Of a DNA stretch of 23,864 nt, positions 3,399-23,864 are shown piece after piece (position 1 is the first letter of the stretch; each line of letters starts with the position of its first letter). The stretch comes from a virus. A program made the translations under genes and the position numbers. The DNA is taken from UHGV virus genome UHGV-1462696; one strand, 5' to 3'. The notes below the pieces were generated by a model. It saw nothing but the letters and a program-made list of their open reading frames with translations. It did no database searches and was not told the DNA's origin.

Positions 3399-3413
3399 CT
3401 ACCTTTAAGGTAA
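3399..3413. promoter_or_regulatory. TTACC-N5-GGTAA-type palindrome (CTACC-TTTAA-GGTAA) in the promoter of the 246-aa gene
   Basis: 31-45 nt upstream of the ATG at 3368; on the gene strand the site reads TTACCTTAAAGGTAGAAT, so the -10-like TAGAAT overlaps it. Confidence 0.5.
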
Positions 3414-4097: not shown

Positions 4098-4174
4098 TGG
4101 CGTGGCATGCAGGATTCGAACCTGCGACCAACCGCTTAGAAGGCGGTTGCTCTGTCCAACTGAGCTAATGCCAC
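4098..4174 (-). tRNA. tRNA-Arg (anticodon UCU), phage-encoded
   Basis: Reverse complement gives a 77-nt cloverleaf: acceptor GTGGCAT/ATGCCAC, D-arm GCTC-AGTTGGACA-GAGC, anticodon stem ACCGC/GCGGT with loop CTTCTAA (anticodon TCT), T-arm GCAGG-TTCGAAT-CCTGC, discriminator G, encoded CCA. Confidence 0.85.
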
Positions 4175-4496: not shown

Positions 4497-4511
4497 TTAC
4501 CTGAAAGGTAA
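4497..4511. promoter_or_regulatory. TTACC-TGAAA-GGTAA palindrome (17-mer identical to the site at 23536) in the divergent region between the tRNA and the portal module
   Basis: Read directly; 91 nt upstream of the ATG at 4602. Confidence 0.55.
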
Positions 4512-20668: not shown

Positions 20669-21229
20669 ATGAAGGCAATTATATTTTTTGTTTCAATATT
20701 GATGTCTGCATTTTCTTTTGCAGGGCAAAATGTTAAATGCGAACTTCAATACTTTGGAGATAACGATAAATTTAAGGTAACTCAGTTTTCTTTTATGGGG
20801 ATTCCATCTGATTCATACCTTTATACCTGTGCCGACTGTGGAGGCATCCAGATAAACGTGTTCCCATCTATTCAGACTGTTGCTTCCTACTCATTTGAAA
20901 ACAACATTGATTTCGAAAGGAAAATCAATGCTGAATACAACAGAAAAGACATAGCTAAACTTGAGATGGAAAACGTTACTCAAGGCGGGAGAATAAAATA
21001 TTCAATCACCGATACTGGTTTGGCAGAGTTTTACCCAGAGGGCAAAAAGATAAGCTACCTCTACTTTTTAGCCAAGCAACAAAATGGTAAAGAACAAGTA
21101 GGTTATTCAGGATTTGTTACCTCTAACGGGGATAAGTCATGCTCAATTATTGCGACATATCCAGGAAAAGAAATTTCTTTTCTGGGAAGTAAATCTTTAA
21201 GCTACTTTATGAATCATATATCAATGTAG
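20669..21229 (+). CDS. Secreted or periplasmic hypothetical protein (moron)
   Basis: Signal peptide MKAIIFFVSILMSAFSFA then GQN, no lipobox; strongly AT-rich codon usage unlike the flanking virion genes; starts 2 nt after the upstream stop, so likely co-transcribed with late genes. Confidence 0.6.
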   Translation: MKAIIFFVSILMSAFSFAGQNVKCELQYFGDNDKFKVTQFSFMGIPSDSYLYTCADCGGIQINVFPSIQTVASYSFENNIDFERKINAEYNRKDIAKLEMENVTQGGRIKYSITDTGLAEFYPEGKKISYLYFLAKQQNGKEQVGYSGFVTSNGDKSCSIIATYPGKEISFLGSKSLSYFMNHISM

Positions 21230-21329: not shown

Positions 21330-21874
21330 TATTCCTTCCATTTATCAGAAAAAAGATCTTCTTCTAAAGGCATTGGTTCTGTTTTTGTTTTCTCAAAGAA
21401 TTGATAACTGATAGTGATTGCTTCCTCTTTAAACTCTTCTTGCTCAGTTATGTTGTGGGCATCTGCGTCAACAAAAAACATAACCAGCGCATCACGATTG
21501 TGATTTACCGAATAAACTAAAAAGCAATCACTTGTTGGTATGCATTTTACTTGCACAGACGCTATATTTTTCCATGCATCCCAAGATGATTTTTTACCAG
21601 TGTGTTTTTTATCACTATCTTCTGGAATATAGTCTTGGTTATCGACATGAGTATGCCTGACATTTAGTTTAAGCATTTCTGTCGGACGAGCAAATGCAGC
21701 ATCTTTACCAAGAGATGGATGGTATCCCGTTTTCCAATACTGGGTAAAGGCATCAGATACTTTCTTCAGCTCAAGATCAGATGCACAAAGGGCCGAGAAA
21801 TTTTGCGTATGCAATACTCGACCCTTATATCTGACAATTTGATTTTTATCATTCTGCGACGCAGACGAACTCAT
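21329..21874 (-). CDS. YafO-like toxin candidate (ribosome-dependent mRNA interferase family) with acidic C-terminal tail
   Basis: Motifs FTQYWKTGYHPSLGKDAAF, NVRHTHV and CFLVYSVNHNRDALVMFFVDADAH parallel YafO segments as recalled (FISYKRDGVLPDIFGRDALY; VAHIHL; AHLVYCQGAFDEQAWLLIAILKPEPH); AT-rich; AAGGA SD before ATG at 21874; the track ORF extends to 21901. Confidence 0.5.
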   Translation of the reverse strand: MSSSASQNDKNQIVRYKGRVLHTQNFSALCASDLELKKVSDAFTQYWKTGYHPSLGKDAAFARPTEMLKLNVRHTHVDNQDYIPEDSDKKHTGKKSSWDAWKNIASVQVKCIPTSDCFLVYSVNHNRDALVMFFVDADAHNITEQEEFKEEAITISYQFFEKTKTEPMPLEEDLFSDKWKE

Positions 21875-22028
21875 AATTTTCCTTATTGTTACGAGAATCA
21901 AAGAAAGCTCGGGATACGCGACTTGCGTGATCTTTTGTCATAGTAACTTTTACGTACTCTACGCTTCCATTGAAAGAACGTCTTGCGGCAGCTTGCGCTC
22001 TACGCATCTGCAATTTTTCGTTTCGCAT
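21849..22028 (-). CDS. Small basic ORF (59 aa, below the track cutoff); candidate antitoxin or regulator
   Basis: Hand-translated from the reverse complement: MRNEKLQMRRAQAAARRSFNGSVEYVKVTMTKDHASRVSRAFFDSRNNKENYEFVCVAE; GAGG SD 7 nt upstream; overlaps the start of the YafO-like gene by 26 nt in another frame; sigma70-like promoter TTGGTT-17-TGTAAT upstream. Confidence 0.3.
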   Translation of the reverse strand: MRNEKLQMRRAQAAARRSFNGSVEYVKVTMTKDHASRVSRAFFDSRNNKENYEFVCVAE

Positions 22029-22088
22029 GACATTACCTCATATCTCATAAGTTCATTACACGGATTAATAAAAATGAAACCAATCCGT

Positions 22089-22103
22089 TTACCCTTGAGG
22101 TAA
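22089..22103. promoter_or_regulatory. TTACC-CTTGA-GGTAA palindrome adjacent to the predicted promoter of the small-ORF / YafO-like unit
   Basis: Read directly; 61-75 nt upstream of the ATG at 22028. Confidence 0.5.
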
Positions 22104-22175
22104 TAGTACGCTATTCACCCACAGTCTGCAATCTGTACAGAATTATTTAAAGGCACATCCCTGTGCCGCCGCCCG

Positions 22176-22886
22176 TCAGAAGAACCCAGCCTTGTCGTTG
22201 ATGTACTCCGCGTGAGTCTGGATATCACGCAGGCATTTGCTCACACCAACGATGTAGCAAAACATGGTGGTCAGCTCCGCCGCCGCGCCCGATACATCGT
22301 GCCCGTCTTCCTGCAACTGGTTCAGCAAATTCATCAGCAGTGAGTTCTCCGTCAGGCCGAGAACACCAGACGGAGAATGAATCAGACTGCGGTAGCCGGG
22401 CTTCAGTGGGGCACTGTAGGTTTTGTTCTCTATCTTCATTGCCTGCATCACTGCTGATGCTGTGGCGTTGGCTACCTGGTCGGCAACCATCTTTATGCGT
22501 TCTTCCTGCGGGAGCGAGTTTTTAATGTAACTTCCGGTGCGGCGGATCTGAGGAAGAACCTCACCTGTAACCCATTTACGAAAGCGGTAGGGGATAGTGC
22601 CTGGTGTCACCGCATCGCGGCAGCGGAGGATCAGTGTGTAGAGGCCTGACTCGGAGATGATGTTGATCTCTTTTACTCGGCTGTCAAAAATTGCACGATG
22701 TTCATGCCCTATGTTGAACATAGACCTTTCATCATCATCCAGTTTTTCAAGTGCTTGGGTGACGTTTTGGATACGCAGCGCACTACAAACGTCTTGGGCT
22801 ACAAACCATGGTTGGCCATCGATAATGATGGAACGGATAGGGTTAACAGATTCAAATTTGAAGATGGCAGTTTGAGCATTAGCCAT
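22176..22886 (-). CDS. ant: Phage antirepressor-like protein (N-terminal Bro-N domain plus C-terminal Ant-type domain)
   Basis: N-terminal AIFKFESVNPIRSIIIDGQPWFVAQDVCSALRIQNVTQALEKLDDDE is a typical Bro-N signature; ATG at 22886 with GGAG SD is preferred over the GTG at 22901 used by the track. Confidence 0.75.
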   Translation of the reverse strand: MANAQTAIFKFESVNPIRSIIIDGQPWFVAQDVCSALRIQNVTQALEKLDDDERSMFNIGHEHRAIFDSRVKEINIISESGLYTLILRCRDAVTPGTIPYRFRKWVTGEVLPQIRRTGSYIKNSLPQEERIKMVADQVANATASAVMQAMKIENKTYSAPLKPGYRSLIHSPSGVLGLTENSLLMNLLNQLQEDGHDVSGAAAELTTMFCYIVGVSKCLRDIQTHAEYINDKAGFF

Positions 22887-23041
22887 GGTGGTTATCTCCA
22901 CTTAGTGATTTTAATCACCACCGCAACGCCAATTACTGGTGGTGAACTGGACAAGGTTGGCGTACCGGCCTAAGTGGTACCGGCGTCCTTTCGGACCCCT
23001 GCCCAGCCCACCATAATTCGGATATGGCTGTGCTTAACGCA

Positions 23042-23065
23042 TAAAAAAACCACGTCTGGCGTGGT
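23042..23065 (-). terminator. Intrinsic terminator on minus strand (ACCACG-ccaga-CGTGGT followed by TTTTTTTAT)
   Basis: Read from the reverse complement; downstream of the truncated ant paralog. Confidence 0.6.
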
Positions 23066-23155
23066 ATGCGCCACTTAGTAACTCGGGACGCCAATCCCGG
23101 CACTGGATTTTGCCAGTGCCCGATTACTATGGCACAAGAGGAGTGCGATGTAAAT

Positions 23156-23170
23156 TTACCGCAAAGGTAA
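23156..23170. promoter_or_regulatory. TTACC-GCAAA-GGTAA palindrome embedded in the 30-nt loop of a 10-bp inverted repeat (AGAGGAGTGC 23137-23146 / GCACTCCTCT 23177-23186)
   Basis: Read directly. Confidence 0.5.
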
Positions 23171-23201
23171 ATATAAGCACTCCTCTTGGTAATTTCAAAT
23201 C

Positions 23202-23459
23202 TTATCTGGTTTGTTTTCGTAATTGTTCGGCACAATAGTCGAGATGTGTTTGCAGATCCCGCATAGACATCTGTGAGCTGGTGACGTAGTTAATCAGTGC
23301 AGTCAGTTCGGCAAGTGGGCCATCGACATTAAATCCATCCTTATCGAGATCCCGGAGTAATTTCATCAAGTGCGATCCCTCCACCAGTGACCTGACGCCT
23401 CCCGGCGTGTGAATCCTTTCGGTAAATCCGTCTTCCAGTGGATAGTGATACTGCTGCAT
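23202..23459 (-). CDS. Stand-alone paralog of the antirepressor C-terminal domain (about 85 aa)
   Basis: ERIHTPGGVRSLVEGSHLMKLLRDLDKDGFNVDGPLAELTALINYV...RDLQTHLDYC aligns with SLIHSPSGVLGLTENSLLMNLLNQLQEDGHDVSGAAAELTTMFCYI...RDIQTHAEYI in the ant product; ATG at 23459 with GGAG SD; the track ORF begins at 23525. Confidence 0.6.
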   Translation of the reverse strand: MQQYHYPLEDGFTERIHTPGGVRSLVEGSHLMKLLRDLDKDGFNVDGPLAELTALINYVTSSQMSMRDLQTHLDYCAEQLRKQTR

Positions 23460-23535
23460 CTTATCTTCTCCATGTAATAACTGTATATTTATACAGTAGC
23501 AAATAATTTGTTTGCTATCCAGCACGTTTTGCGAA

Positions 23536-23550
23536 TTACCTGAAAGGTAA
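23536..23550. promoter_or_regulatory. TTACC-TGAAA-GGTAA palindrome in the divergent region between the ant paralog and the tail fibre gene
   Basis: 17-mer TTACCTGAAAGGTAATA identical to the site at 4497; 105 nt upstream of the tail fibre ATG. Confidence 0.55.
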
Positions 23551-23654
23551 TATCTGTTCGTATTTATGGGTTATCTATCCATATGTGGTTTTTTAGGTAA
23601 TAGAATGATCGGATATGCGGCGCAACGGGTGCTGCGACTATCTGGAGATTTAAC

Positions 23655-23864
23655 ATGACGGTCTCAACCGAAGTTGACCACAACGAATACACAGGTAACG
23701 GCGTTACGACATCATTTCCGTACACCTTTAGGGTTTTCAATAAATCTGATCTGGTAGTACAGGTGGTTGACCTTGACGAAAATATCGCTGTGCTGGCTCT
23801 TGATACTGATTACACAGTTACCGGGGCTGGAGGATATAACGGCGGTAATGTAATTCTCTCGAAG
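23655..23864 (+). CDS. Tail fibre / tailspike protein, N-terminal part (truncated by window end)
   Basis: N-terminal EYTGNGVTTSFPYTF ... DTDYTV pattern is typical of the conserved particle-binding N-terminal domain of podovirus tail fibres (T7 gp17-like); the ORF runs off the window. Confidence 0.7.
   Translation, partial: MTVSTEVDHNEYTGNGVTTSFPYTFRVFNKSDLVVQVVDLDENIAVLALDTDYTVTGAGGYNGGNVILSK

Follow-up and report, generated by a model that had tools for sequence, protein, structure and literature searches.

A probable P1-type antisense control module, made up of an IsrK leader and a C4 RNA, upstream of the antirepressor gene of an epsilon15/phiV10-like phage

The window (the whole stretch of 23,864 nucleotides of DNA that was analysed) comes from an epsilon15/phiV10-like (Uetakevirus) temperate phage, and the module described here, in the interval 22887-23201, is located between the ejection-protein genes and the tailspike gene (Table 1). 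The product of ant matches Pfam Bro-N with 71.5 bits and PHROG 130 'anti-repressor Ant' with E = 8e-57, and its homologue in vB_EcoP_ZX5 (ORF4) lowers lysogeny when overexpressed and pushes the phage toward lysis (PMC9782041). On the upstream side, the 'ant paralog' of an earlier sequence-only reading turned out to be a real 85-aa ORF with similarity to the Ant C-terminal domain. No terminator-like site was found on the minus strand between 23459 and 23066, and this ORF is directly upstream of the IsrK RNA described below. At the position of the LexA-box-like site, CTGT-N8-ACAG is present in 51 of 88 relatives, and a possible function of the site is an SOS input into the module. Between the C4 RNA and ant there is no ORF comparable to icd, and b2 lies on the Shine-Dalgarno (SD) of ant itself.

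Table 1. Features of the antirepressor locus, listed from upstream to downstream on the minus strand
Feature	Coordinates	Strand	Description
LexA-box-like site	23481..23496		CTGTATATTTATACAG; upstream of 85-aa ORF
85-aa ORF ('ant paralog')	23459..23202	minus	43% identity over 74 residues to Ant C-terminal domain; PHROG 450
Second promoter-like site	23198..23170	minus	TTGAAA-17-TATATT; consensus scan
Operator-like TTACC-N5-GGTAA palindrome	23156-23170		TTACCGCAAAGGTAA; abuts -35 of putative IsrK promoter
PisrK promoter-like site	23154..23126	minus	TTTACA, 17-nt spacer, CATAGT, TG upstream of -10; consensus scan
IsrK RNA	23119..23043	minus	Rfam RF01394, 67.2 bits vs gathering score 50, match 1-77/77
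a1	23094..23088	minus	UUGGCGU; IsrK hairpin 2 loop; complementary to C4 a'
b1	23079..23071	minus	ACUAAGUGG; upstream copy of C4 b' target (putative decoy), inside IsrK
IsrK intrinsic terminator	23065..23043	minus	ACCACG-CCAGA-CGUGGU then U7; terminator-like site and Rfam structure
C4 antisense RNA gene	23018..22935	minus	Rfam RF01695, 66.0 bits vs gathering score 45, match 1-87/87
b'	22977..22970	minus	CCACUUAG; in 9-nt loop of C4 hairpin 2; the "anti-SD" of the sequence-only reading
a'	22963..22957	minus	ACGCCAA; single-stranded joint of C4; opening cost 0.02 kcal/mol
a2	22932..22926	minus	UUGGCGU; 5 nt downstream of predicted C4 3' end; position as P1 a2
b2	22906..22898	minus	ACUAAGUGG; overlaps ant Shine-Dalgarno GGAG (22899..22896); position as P1 b2 overlapping icd RBS
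ant (regulated gene)	22886..22176	minus	Antirepressor, Bro-N domain and Ant C-terminal domain; ATG 22886..22884

The sequence-only reading had described the interval as one structured leader, and all the motif strings that it quoted were found at their positions, including ACTAAGTGGAG at 22906..22896 on the minus strand. When the whole window was scanned with Rfam at gathering thresholds, isrK and C4 were both matched on the minus strand within 22887-23201; the "structured leader" is therefore two catalogued small phage RNAs, an IsrK leader and a C4 antisense RNA. IsrK consists of hairpin 1 (loop GCAAAAUC), hairpin 2, which presents a1, a single-stranded b1, and an intrinsic terminator, and its minimum free energy (MFE) fold agrees with the Rfam structure (three hairpins, the last of which is the terminator). 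In fact, the 8-bp-stem hairpin GGCACTGGCAAAATCCAGTGCC (23120..23099) noticed earlier is hairpin 1 of IsrK. The c4-a1b1 model (RF03163) scores 44.3 bits at 23132..23080, below its gathering score of 46.7, on the same segment that is covered by isrK; on the P1 a1/b1 leader, the isrK model scores 35 bits, and there the isrK and c4-a1b1 models overlap. IsrK is a homologue of the P1 a1/b1 leader. The string ACTAAGTGG (23079..23071, minus strand) occurs at only two places in the window, against 0.12 expected, and the copy that had been assigned to the end of the ant-paralog transcript, just before its terminator, instead lies inside IsrK, which has a promoter-like site and a terminator of its own. 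The string ATTGGCGT occurs exactly twice in the window, at 23095..23088 and 22933..22926, and with 1.04 occurrences expected, it is alone not above chance.

The promoter-like sites of the region are consensus matches only, with two found versus 2.5 expected in shuffles; the promoter and terminator matches are correctly placed for IsrK. The predicted +1 of PisrK is near 23119, and the Rfam IsrK match begins 7 nt beyond the end of the -10; the PisrK sequence is conserved in relatives. The TTACC-N5-GGTAA palindrome overlaps the end of the upstream promoter-like site; 8 such sites are present in the window compared to 0.27 expected, and its position beside TTTACA/TTGACA is kept in nearly all relatives, including the distant loci L003-L005 and L007. 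A 10-bp inverted repeat had been proposed around this palindrome. The repeat is present (AAGAGGAGTGC / GCACTCCTCTT at 23187..23177 and 23146..23136) and does enclose TTACCGCAAAGGTAA, but its length is 11 bp, and its left arm is not conserved among relatives. The palindrome GTGATTTTAATCAC is likewise present, at 22905-22918, and is not conserved among relatives. Both the palindrome and the 11-bp repeat were rejected as functional elements, and because of this lack of conservation, the former and the left arm of the latter are probably incidental.

The C4 RNA alone folds with an MFE of -43.6 kcal/mol (z = -5.0) into a structure identical to that of Rfam, in which a long closing stem encloses two hairpins, and compensatory double changes were observed in 13 of 25 pairs among 16 relatives. 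Alignment to the annotated 77-nt P1 c4 predicts a mature C4 at 23012..22938 with an ACCA-like 3' tail, and the window and P1 have in common the context AAUUAU^GGUGGG at the C4 5' end and, beyond the closing stem, a tail of ...ACCA. Work of Hartmann et al. in 1995 reportedly gave RNase P a role in excising c4, of ~77 nt, from its precursor. The b' loop (CCACTTAGG at 22977..22969, minus strand) has an opening cost of 0.4 kcal/mol, and the direct repeat GTACCGGC (22962-22969, 22977-22984) corresponds to both arms of the b' hairpin, with a CCGG core. The b' of the phiV10 type is CCUUUUAG, compared to CCACUUAG in the window type. A second recognition pair was missed by the sequence-only reading, namely, that of a' with a1 in the IsrK hairpin-2 loop and with a2 just 3' of C4. 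In the fold predicted for the ant leader, a2 is buried and costs 6.4 kcal/mol to open, which leaves a net a'-a2 gain of only ~-2.9 kcal/mol. No further C4 target with both a and b was found in the window.

For the comparison among relatives, 150 loci were fetched via Ant homologues, 87 of which had the leader, and 20 diverse representatives from Uetakevirus, Stx, Klebsiella, Yersinia and Hafnia phages and P1 formed the covariation set. Across these 20 relatives, the antisense and target elements change together, with ~6 a-types and ~8 b-types, and the a-types assort independently of the b-types. The a' element covaries with a2 in 20/20 loci and with a1 in 19/20 (the exception being one mosaic locus, L136); similarly, b' covaries with b2 in 20/20 loci and with b1 in 20/20, G-U wobbles being tolerated. 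The cognate duplexes of the 20 representatives are at -12.0 (b'-b1), -11.3 (b'-b2), -9.0 (a'-a1) and -9.5 (a'-a2) kcal/mol, and the non-cognate duplexes are at -4.3 to -5.5 kcal/mol. None of 1000 permutations reached the observed total fit, in a test that overstates independence since the sequences are related. Based on this covariation, both recognition pairs are real. The family membership of both RNAs, their fold, the positions of the elements and the three-way covariation were all computed directly, and the interval 22887-23201 is, with high probability, a module of the P1 immI type by which antisense RNA controls the antirepressor gene.

The layout agrees closely with that of P1/P7 immI. 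In the P1 record, the annotated elements are an operator, two promoters, a1, b1, c4, a2, and b2 overlapping the icd RBS, with similar spacing, and the order of operator/promoter, a1, b1, hairpin with U-run, C4, a2, b2 on the RBS and antirepressor is alike; the P1 sequence itself scores 68.8 bits with C4 and 51 bits with c4-a1b1. The fold of C4 does not differ either: b' is located in a hairpin loop and a' in a single-stranded joint. The two loci have the conserved 5' AAUUAU/GGUGGG and a ...CCACC tail at the 3' end in common, and sequence variants of a and b set the specificity, as in P1 versus P7 heteroimmunity. On the other hand, in the window, which lacks an icd-like ORF, repression would act directly on the ant SD and not via icd translation and polarity. 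The antirepressor belongs to the Bro-N proteins, whereas P1 has Ant1/Ant2; the operator-like site is a TTACC-N5-GGTAA palindrome, in contrast to the asymmetric C1 operator of P1; the module is carried by a small podovirus-like prophage; and isrK is the model that matches the a1/b1 leader (67 bits), with c4-a1b1 just under its gathering score. It is well supported that IsrK and C4 are set out as in phage P1 and would keep antirepressor translation off, and the module is an ordinary further example of a known switch, whose principle is not new.

A similar arrangement is known in Salmonella as Gifsy-1 isrK-orf45(STnc1160)-anrP, where IsrK given in trans raises antirepressor translation >100-fold (Hershko-Shalev et al. 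2016, PMC4825925). There, too, IsrK is short and ends at a terminator; transcripts that read through it extend into the antirepressor gene and form an mRNA that is translationally silent and is activated by trans IsrK (PMC4825925). Hfq binding by IsrK is likewise a property described for Gifsy-1. The a-type UUGGCGU/ACGCCAA appears to be the same, and the pairs G28-C162 and G31-C159, established in Gifsy-1 genetically by compensatory mutations, fall on a1:a' of the window, in a mapping made by Rfam numbering and not on the Gifsy-1 sequence; by this mapping, a1 would correspond to IsrK G28/G31. In Gifsy-1, a1 mutations in cis raise basal translation, which a pure decoy model does not predict (PMC4825925). 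The two loci differ in that no antQ (a Q-like antiterminator) is present upstream here, its place being taken by the 85-aa Ant C-terminal paralogue preceded by the LexA-box-like site, and in that orf45 is not conserved; instead, a 14-codon ORF starts at an AUG in the C4 5' arm and ends at a UAG in the b' loop, >80 nt before ant. Since orf45 is not conserved, translational coupling cannot operate. An upstream ORF is coupled to the antirepressor gene in both Gifsy-1 (orf45) and P1 (icd), and such an ORF is absent here. In the published Gifsy-1 model, the C4 segment is an ORF with alternative structures and not a c4 homologue (PMC4825925).

In APSE phages of Hamiltonella, Rfam c4 and isrK also occur together beside a Bro-N gene (Rouil et al. 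2020, PMC7313666), and a'/b' match the non-coding region upstream of that gene (PMC7313666). APSE-2 is among the BLAST relatives. These phages belong to another lineage with another host, and an extra distant target in the DNA polymerase gene is reported for them (PMC7313666). The sequence-only reading had likened the locus to the antisense control of P22 ant. In P22, the small RNA sar does pair at the ant ribosome-binding site and thereby limits the translation of the antirepressor, but it is transcribed from the opposite strand across that site and is fully complementary to it, whereas the regulator in the window is same-strand, located upstream, and has two short pairing elements and decoy-like copies; P1/P7 c4 and Gifsy-1 IsrK, and not sar, are the correct analogues. 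A sar-like opposite-strand RNA was rejected, as no plus-strand promoter-like site was found in 21900-23700. The only terminator-like hairpin of the plus strand is a weak one at 22887-22902. The CI RNA of P4 with seqA/seqC is similar in that a processed regulator is flanked by upstream and downstream target copies in the same transcript, a likeness noted by the Gifsy-1 authors (PMC4825925); in P4, the outcome is premature transcription termination of replication genes, whereas the downstream target in the window is a Shine-Dalgarno.

With P1 and Gifsy-1 as guides to processing, trans action, the decoy role and the physiological outcome, the following mechanism may be proposed. The operator-flanked promoter would produce IsrK, a 77-nt leader that shows a1 in a hairpin loop and b1 single-stranded and stops at the intrinsic terminator. 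Transcripts reading through this terminator would enter C4, a tRNA-like domain of ~75 nt, and then ant, and by homology with P1, C4 would be excised, with an RNase P cut at its 5' end, and would accumulate. The exposed b' and a' of C4 would then pair with b2 and a2 in the ant 5' UTR. As b2 includes the first two G of the Shine-Dalgarno, this pairing would block ribosome binding, and Ant would not be made in the lysogen. IsrK bears both C4 targets and may thus act as a rival decoy; once IsrK or another RNA bearing a1/b1 rises relative to C4, C4 would be titrated and ant translated. The specificity would be determined by the a and b sequences, as in P1/P7 heteroimmunity. Two claims of the sequence-only reading are upheld in this scheme. 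It is very likely that an RNA element pairing with the SD region controls Ant translation post-transcriptionally, and it is also very likely that the upstream target copy competes for this element; both fit the published behaviour of the homologous Gifsy-1 IsrK locus and the P1 c4 annotation.

The same elements could also be arranged in a purely cis-acting leader, as originally proposed, in which anti-SD and SD pair within one transcript and competition from the upstream copy is limited to read-through RNA, without a separate small RNA. One transcript carries all the elements, unprocessed C4 could act in cis, and alternative intramolecular structures of the long transcript are described by the Gifsy-1 authors (PMC4825925). 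However, the anti-SD was misplaced in that proposal: it is not a strand of a leader helix but lies in the loop of a separately folding, autonomous, tRNA-like domain of ~75 nt that scores as C4. No SD:anti-SD helix is present in the MFE or centroid fold of the 250-nt or the 173-nt leader, an outcome that the sequence-only reading had itself counted against sequestration. Pseudoknot-free folding is blind to pairing between a loop and its target, and such pairing was estimated here by opening energy plus duplex energy instead. Moreover, the P1 annotation describes c4 as an RNA of its own, 77 nt long, with a2/b2 as the sites through which it represses icd/ant translation, its trans action is stated in a P1 paper, and Gifsy-1 IsrK is active when given in trans (PMC4825925). 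A purely cis-acting leader is therefore improbable. The most serious competitor of the decoy role, though still unlikely, is that a1/b1 of IsrK serve mainly for C4-controlled termination (as in P4 CI RNA via seqA/seqC): termination would be favoured when C4 binds nascent a1/b1, which would autoregulate read-through into C4 and ant. This possibility was raised by the Gifsy-1 authors (PMC4825925), b1 is immediately 5' of the terminator, and per-sequence folds show a conserved terminator-flanking helix that overlaps the 3' end of b1 and can form only after read-through. Against it, candidate antiterminator pairings found here by inspection are only 4-5 bp; in Gifsy-1, trans IsrK raises a translational fusion 139-fold versus 8-fold for a transcriptional one, and constitutive co-expression of the C4 segment left the IsrK growth arrest unrelieved or, if anything, more pronounced (PMC4825925).

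It might also be argued that the region encodes a small protein, either of the 'Ash family' or an orf45-like leader peptide, whose translation matters. In the GenBank records of ZX5 and Hafnia phage yong2, this segment is annotated as an 'ash family protein', the translated yong2 ORF gives a Pfam Phage_ASH match of 51 bits, and Gifsy-1 orf45 was reported to be necessary for coupling (PMC4825925). Nevertheless, the frames are broken in the window, where the ORF from the conserved AUG has 14 codons, and neither the 34-aa and 100-aa ORFs nor the ZX5 'ash' ORF has Pfam or NCBIfam matches. The yong2 ORF would cross the intrinsic terminator, and its Phage_ASH match falls exactly on the RNA segment. 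In addition, the substitutions in the RNA stems are compensatory, and the Gifsy-1 paper itself notes conservation of the nucleotide sequence but not of the peptide. A coding function is accordingly very improbable. The chance that the complementarities are accidental matches in an ordinary intergenic region is close to nil: the 8-mer ATTGGCGT by itself agrees with such an origin, but the scores of two curated covariance models exceed the gathering thresholds, ACTAAGTGG is in excess, and the three-way covariation extends over all a- and b-types with a fit that the permutations did not reach. This explanation was regarded as refuted by the covariance-model scores and the covariation.

Returning to the P1-type antisense module, a connection between IsrK and a1b1 was not made in the literature searched, and isrK is not a member of the C4 clan in Rfam. 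An IsrK or C4 RNA is marked in no GenBank record of the closest phages (HEMP4, phiV10, TL-2011b, ZX5, Tyrion), and in some records the RNA segment is translated as an 'Ash family' or a hypothetical protein. Among Uetakevirus, Stx, Klebsiella, Yersinia, Hafnia and P1-like phages, no fewer than 6 a-types and 8 b-types recombine independently. A broader reading, to which we give slightly less than an even chance, equates IsrK with the P1 a1/b1 leader and the Gifsy-1 'orf45' with a c4 RNA, and takes the module as a whole for an RNA 'immunity barcode' of two elements (a, b). If this is true, a/b combinations would define cross-immunity groups, and the barcode of this lineage would target the ant SD itself, with no leader ORF in between. 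In addition, the LexA-box promoter of the Ant-C paralogue may, in response to SOS, drive transcription into a1/b1 and supply an inducible decoy RNA. In general, the module explains how lysogens can silence an antirepressor whose activity has been demonstrated by experiment (ZX5 ORF4), predicts which related phages should and which should not cross-repress each other's ant, and connects the P1 c4 and Gifsy-1 IsrK literatures, which describe the same device in different terms.

The segment at 22887-23201 (minus strand) is a textbook-type antisense module of the P1 c4/IsrK kind, a new example of a known device. When the whole window was scanned with Rfam at curated thresholds, three matches were obtained, two of which, isrK and C4 antisense RNA, fill the segment; the c4-a1b1 model ("a1, b1 targets of C4 antisense RNA") falls slightly below its threshold. 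The sequence-only reading had described a structured leader in which an upstream complement could sequester the ant SD, with a logic reminiscent of the antisense control of P22 ant. All of its strings are present where it placed them and its regulatory logic was essentially right, but the object is this antisense module, not a novel structured leader, and P22 sar is the wrong comparison. What it called the "anti-SD", CCACUUAG, forms the loop of C4 hairpin 2 (b' in P1 nomenclature). Both arms of this b' hairpin account for its "direct repeat" GTACCGGC, and its 8-bp hairpin corresponds to the first hairpin of IsrK. It had overlooked a second recognition pair, a' with a1 and a2. The upstream "ant paralog" is real. 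ACTAAGTGG is found at only two places in the 23.9-kb window, each within the segment (0.12 expected). The reading frame that starts at the AUG of the conserved AUGGUGGG, in the C4 5' arm, is just 14 codons long and ends at a UAG inside b'.

Features of the antisense module and of related sites in the window
Feature	Position	Strand	Sequence or score	Remark
isrK (RF01394)	23119..23043	minus	67.2 bits	gathering score 50
C4 antisense RNA (RF01695)	23018..22935	minus	66.0 bits	gathering score 45
c4-a1b1 (RF03163)	23132..23080		44.3 bits	threshold 46.7
Mature C4 (predicted from P1 alignment)	23012..22938			cut after AAUUAU; ACCA-like tail at end
a1	23094..23088	minus	UUGGCGU	loop of IsrK hairpin 2; complementary to a'
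a'	22963..22957	minus	ACGCCAA	single-stranded joint of C4
a2	22932..22926	minus	UUGGCGU	5 nt past predicted C4 3' end; complementary to a'
b1			ACUAAGUGG	within IsrK
b'			CCACUUAG	loop of C4 hairpin 2
b2			ACUAAGUGG	overlaps first two G of ant GGAG
Conserved element	22920..22912	minus	GGUGGUGAU	directly 3' of a2
ant ATG	22886..22884	minus
Helix around IsrK terminator	about 23073..23034	minus	UGGCGCAU, AUGCGUUA	the two pair
Promoter-like site		minus	TTTACA-17-CATAGT	consensus match; ends 7 nt 5' of IsrK start
Palindrome	23156-23170		TTACC-N5-GGTAA	adjoins IsrK promoter-like site
Other palindrome copies	526-540, 544-558, 3399-3413, 4497-4511, 21031-21045, 22089-22103, 23536-23550
85-aa ORF, Ant C-terminal-domain paralogue	23459..23202	minus		43% identity over 74 residues; PHROG 450
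LexA box, near-consensus	23481-23496		CTGTATATTTATACAG	upstream of 85-aa ORF
59-aa ORF	21852..22028	minus		PHROG 6685
190-aa ORF	21332..21901	minus	26.1 bits	marginal Pfam YafO_toxin match (cutoff 25)
tRNA gene	4101-4174	minus	73.3 bits

C4 alone folds as the Rfam structure (-43.6 kcal/mol, z = -5.0; none of 200 shuffles folds as well), and 13 of its 25 pairs show two-sided changes that keep the pairing among 16 relatives. The elements a' and b' are nearly all unpaired in the predicted ensemble, and their opening costs only 0.02 and 0.40 kcal/mol, respectively. Folds of the whole leader leave the C4 domain intact and lack the SD:anti-SD helix expected by the sequence-only reading. Rough net energies (duplex formation plus opening) for C4 with the ant leader are -6.2 kcal/mol at the b element and -2.9 kcal/mol at the a element; with IsrK, they are -7.0 and -6.9 kcal/mol. 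On these rough estimates, C4 would pair with IsrK no less favorably than with the mRNA. A separate observation concerns GGUGGUGAU, which is invariant in all enterobacterial relatives despite a variable spacer. It is complementary to the C4 3' arm (UCACCACC) and, in this phage, also to ACCACC just 5' of the ant AUG; P1 has another, likewise complementary pair. Such pairing might reflect an alternative fold, either of the transcript before processing or of the region where ant translation starts.

The window belongs to an epsilon15/phiV10-like phage (Uetakevirus), and phage HEMP4 is 97.8% identical across the locus. Leader homologues are found in 245 phage records, the majority from Stx phages; GenBank entries for the closest phages leave the RNAs unannotated. 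Via Ant homologues, 150 loci were obtained, and the 87 with the leader amount to 68 distinct leader sequences, in which the six elements occur in 20 different combinations; P1 and eight phage-record loci (Klebsiella, Hafnia, Enterobacter, Yersinia; lambdoid E. coli phages VT2-Sakai and CP-1639) were added to the comparison. About six a-types (GGCGU, GGUCU, UGCAC, GAGAC, GACCU and P1 UGACAG) and about eight b-types (ACUAAGUGG, ACUAAAAGG, ACUACAAAGG, ACUAAACGG, UCGCAAGAG, UCAUCAUGG, GAAACC and P1 GUUAGUG) are distinguished. Except for a1 of one mosaic locus, the antisense element and both of its target copies co-vary, with occasional G-U wobbles. Cognate duplexes average -12.0 (b'-b1), -11.3 (b'-b2), -9.0 (a'-a1) and -9.5 kcal/mol (a'-a2), clearly separated from the non-cognate means of the four pairings (-4.3 to -5.5 kcal/mol). 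None of 1000 permutations matches the observed duplex total, a count that is not a true probability because the sequences are related. Even with this kinship, so many independent types, and the way they reassort, make chance complementarity untenable.

Combinations of a-type and b-type differ between loci. In the mosaic leader, L136 (IMGVR_UViG_3300045988_096329), a1 is of the GGCGU type and a'/a2 of the AGACC/GGUCU type, and the cognate a'-a1 duplex reaches only -3.1 kcal/mol; this locus looks like a natural recombinant whose decoy has lost its match to C4 in the a element. The varied combinations and this mosaic suggest that specificity modules have recombined. Lineages also differ in where b2 lies relative to the start site: in Yersinia phage vB_YpM_41 (locus L159), b2 (UCAUCAUG) overlaps the start codon, not the SD, and in the Stx phages CP-1639 and VT2-Sakai (L160/L161), b2 (GAAACC) is separated from the downstream GAGG by a few bases.

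The P1 GenBank annotation gives the order C1 operator Oc4, two promoters, a1, b1, the 77-nt c4 RNA, a2, b2, icd and ant1/ant2, with b2 overlapping the icd ribosome-binding site, and the complete layout is also present in the window. On the P1 stretch, Rfam scores 68.8 bits for C4 and 51 bits for c4-a1b1. The isrK model also matches the P1 a1/b1 leader (35 bits), aligning the GCAAAUUC hairpin, the a1 hairpin, b1, and the hairpin with its U-run; thus, IsrK is the homologue of the P1 leader. Neither P1 icd nor Gifsy-1 orf45 has a counterpart in the window, so repression of ant is expected to be direct. In P1, c4 represses Ant synthesis in trans (P1 paper and P1 record annotation). In Gifsy-1, the isrK promoter drives the antirepressor gene, the read-through mRNA is untranslated, and IsrK in trans increases antirepressor translation 114- to 171-fold; IsrK-G28A and IsrK-G31A lack this activity, and G28A/C162U and G31A/C159U act as compensatory pairs (PMC4825925). 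By Rfam alignment numbering, rather than Gifsy-1 DNA, G28 and G31 fall within a1 (U26-U32) and C159 and C162 within a', which suggests that the published "helix b-I" corresponds to a1:a'.

Based on these findings and the P1 and Gifsy-1 literature, it is proposed that C4 would block the ant SD, that IsrK, or another a1/b1-bearing RNA, would titrate C4, and that the ratio of the two would set Ant synthesis. The basis established here comprises both RNA identities, the C4 fold, the exposure of a' and b' in the predicted ensemble, b2 on the SD, and the three-way covariation. Two points fit this model poorly: cis a1 mutations in Gifsy-1 increase basal expression (PMC4825925), and a2 is buried in the predicted ant leader. 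It is possible that a1/b1 instead act in termination control, as in P4, to which, and not to P1, its authors likened the Gifsy-1 locus, raising this possibility there (PMC4825925). A helix bracketing the IsrK terminator in the folds of relatives favors this option. Read by eye from per-sequence folds, it belongs to the MFE structure of at least 12 of 13 diverse relatives, including P1 (L153, 18272-18325), with Stx-phage locus L160 ambiguous, and it is kept with differing sequences (GCACAU/AUGUGU, CGGACA/UGUCCG). Only read-through RNA could form it. Part of the helix coincides with the b1 3' end, for which the cost of opening goes up from 2.5 to 4.4 kcal/mol.

Upstream of IsrK, the promoter-like site and the adjoining palindrome are conserved in relatives, and a second promoter-like site precedes them. 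The palindrome occurs eight times in the window with at most one mismatch (0.27 expected): two copies lie in tandem, flanked by a terminator-like hairpin and the start of the small-terminase gene, and further copies lie 5' of the 59-aa/YafO-like ORFs, the IsrK promoter and the LexA-box ORF. These sites look like copies of an operator that serves a single phage regulator, much as C1 operators are scattered across P1. Where Gifsy-1 has antQ, the window has the Ant-C paralogue preceded by a LexA box, which is present in 51 of 88 relatives. A consensus scan found no terminator-like site between this ORF and IsrK, so its transcript would run into IsrK. The 85-aa ORF may encode an SOS-controlled small antirepressor; small antirepressors under LexA control are known from Gifsy phages, 186 and N15. 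Downstream of ant, the 59-aa ORF precedes the YafO_toxin-matching ORF, and the two may therefore form a toxin-antitoxin-like pair.

In relatives, the conceptual translation matched by Pfam Phage_ASH (PF10554) coincides exactly with the IsrK-C4 RNA segment; the loci concerned are L157 (Hafnia phage yong2, 1189-1471), L159 (1339-1623) and L002 (2156-2269). The yong2 match scores 51.3 bits over profile positions 1-106 of 107, and an ORF over C4 in a Yersinia phage scores 26.1 bits. The yong2 "Ash" CDS passes through the IsrK terminator. Entries labelled "Ash family protein" in these phages, perhaps along with some of PF10554 itself, may therefore be translations of an RNA gene.

The c4 and c4-a1b1 motifs were defined in 2010 (PMC2864571), and isrK and c4 were jointly reported beside a Bro-N gene in APSE phages, whose upstream region is matched by a'/b' (PMC7313666); a 2025 review handled IsrK and c4 as separate systems. 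For vB_EcoP_ZX5, the subject of the one functional study of a close relative, Ant was reported to promote the lytic cycle, with RNA control not mentioned (PMC9782041). It is defensible to unify IsrK with the c4 a1/b1 leader, and to view the module as a recombining two-element specificity code with a possible SOS input.
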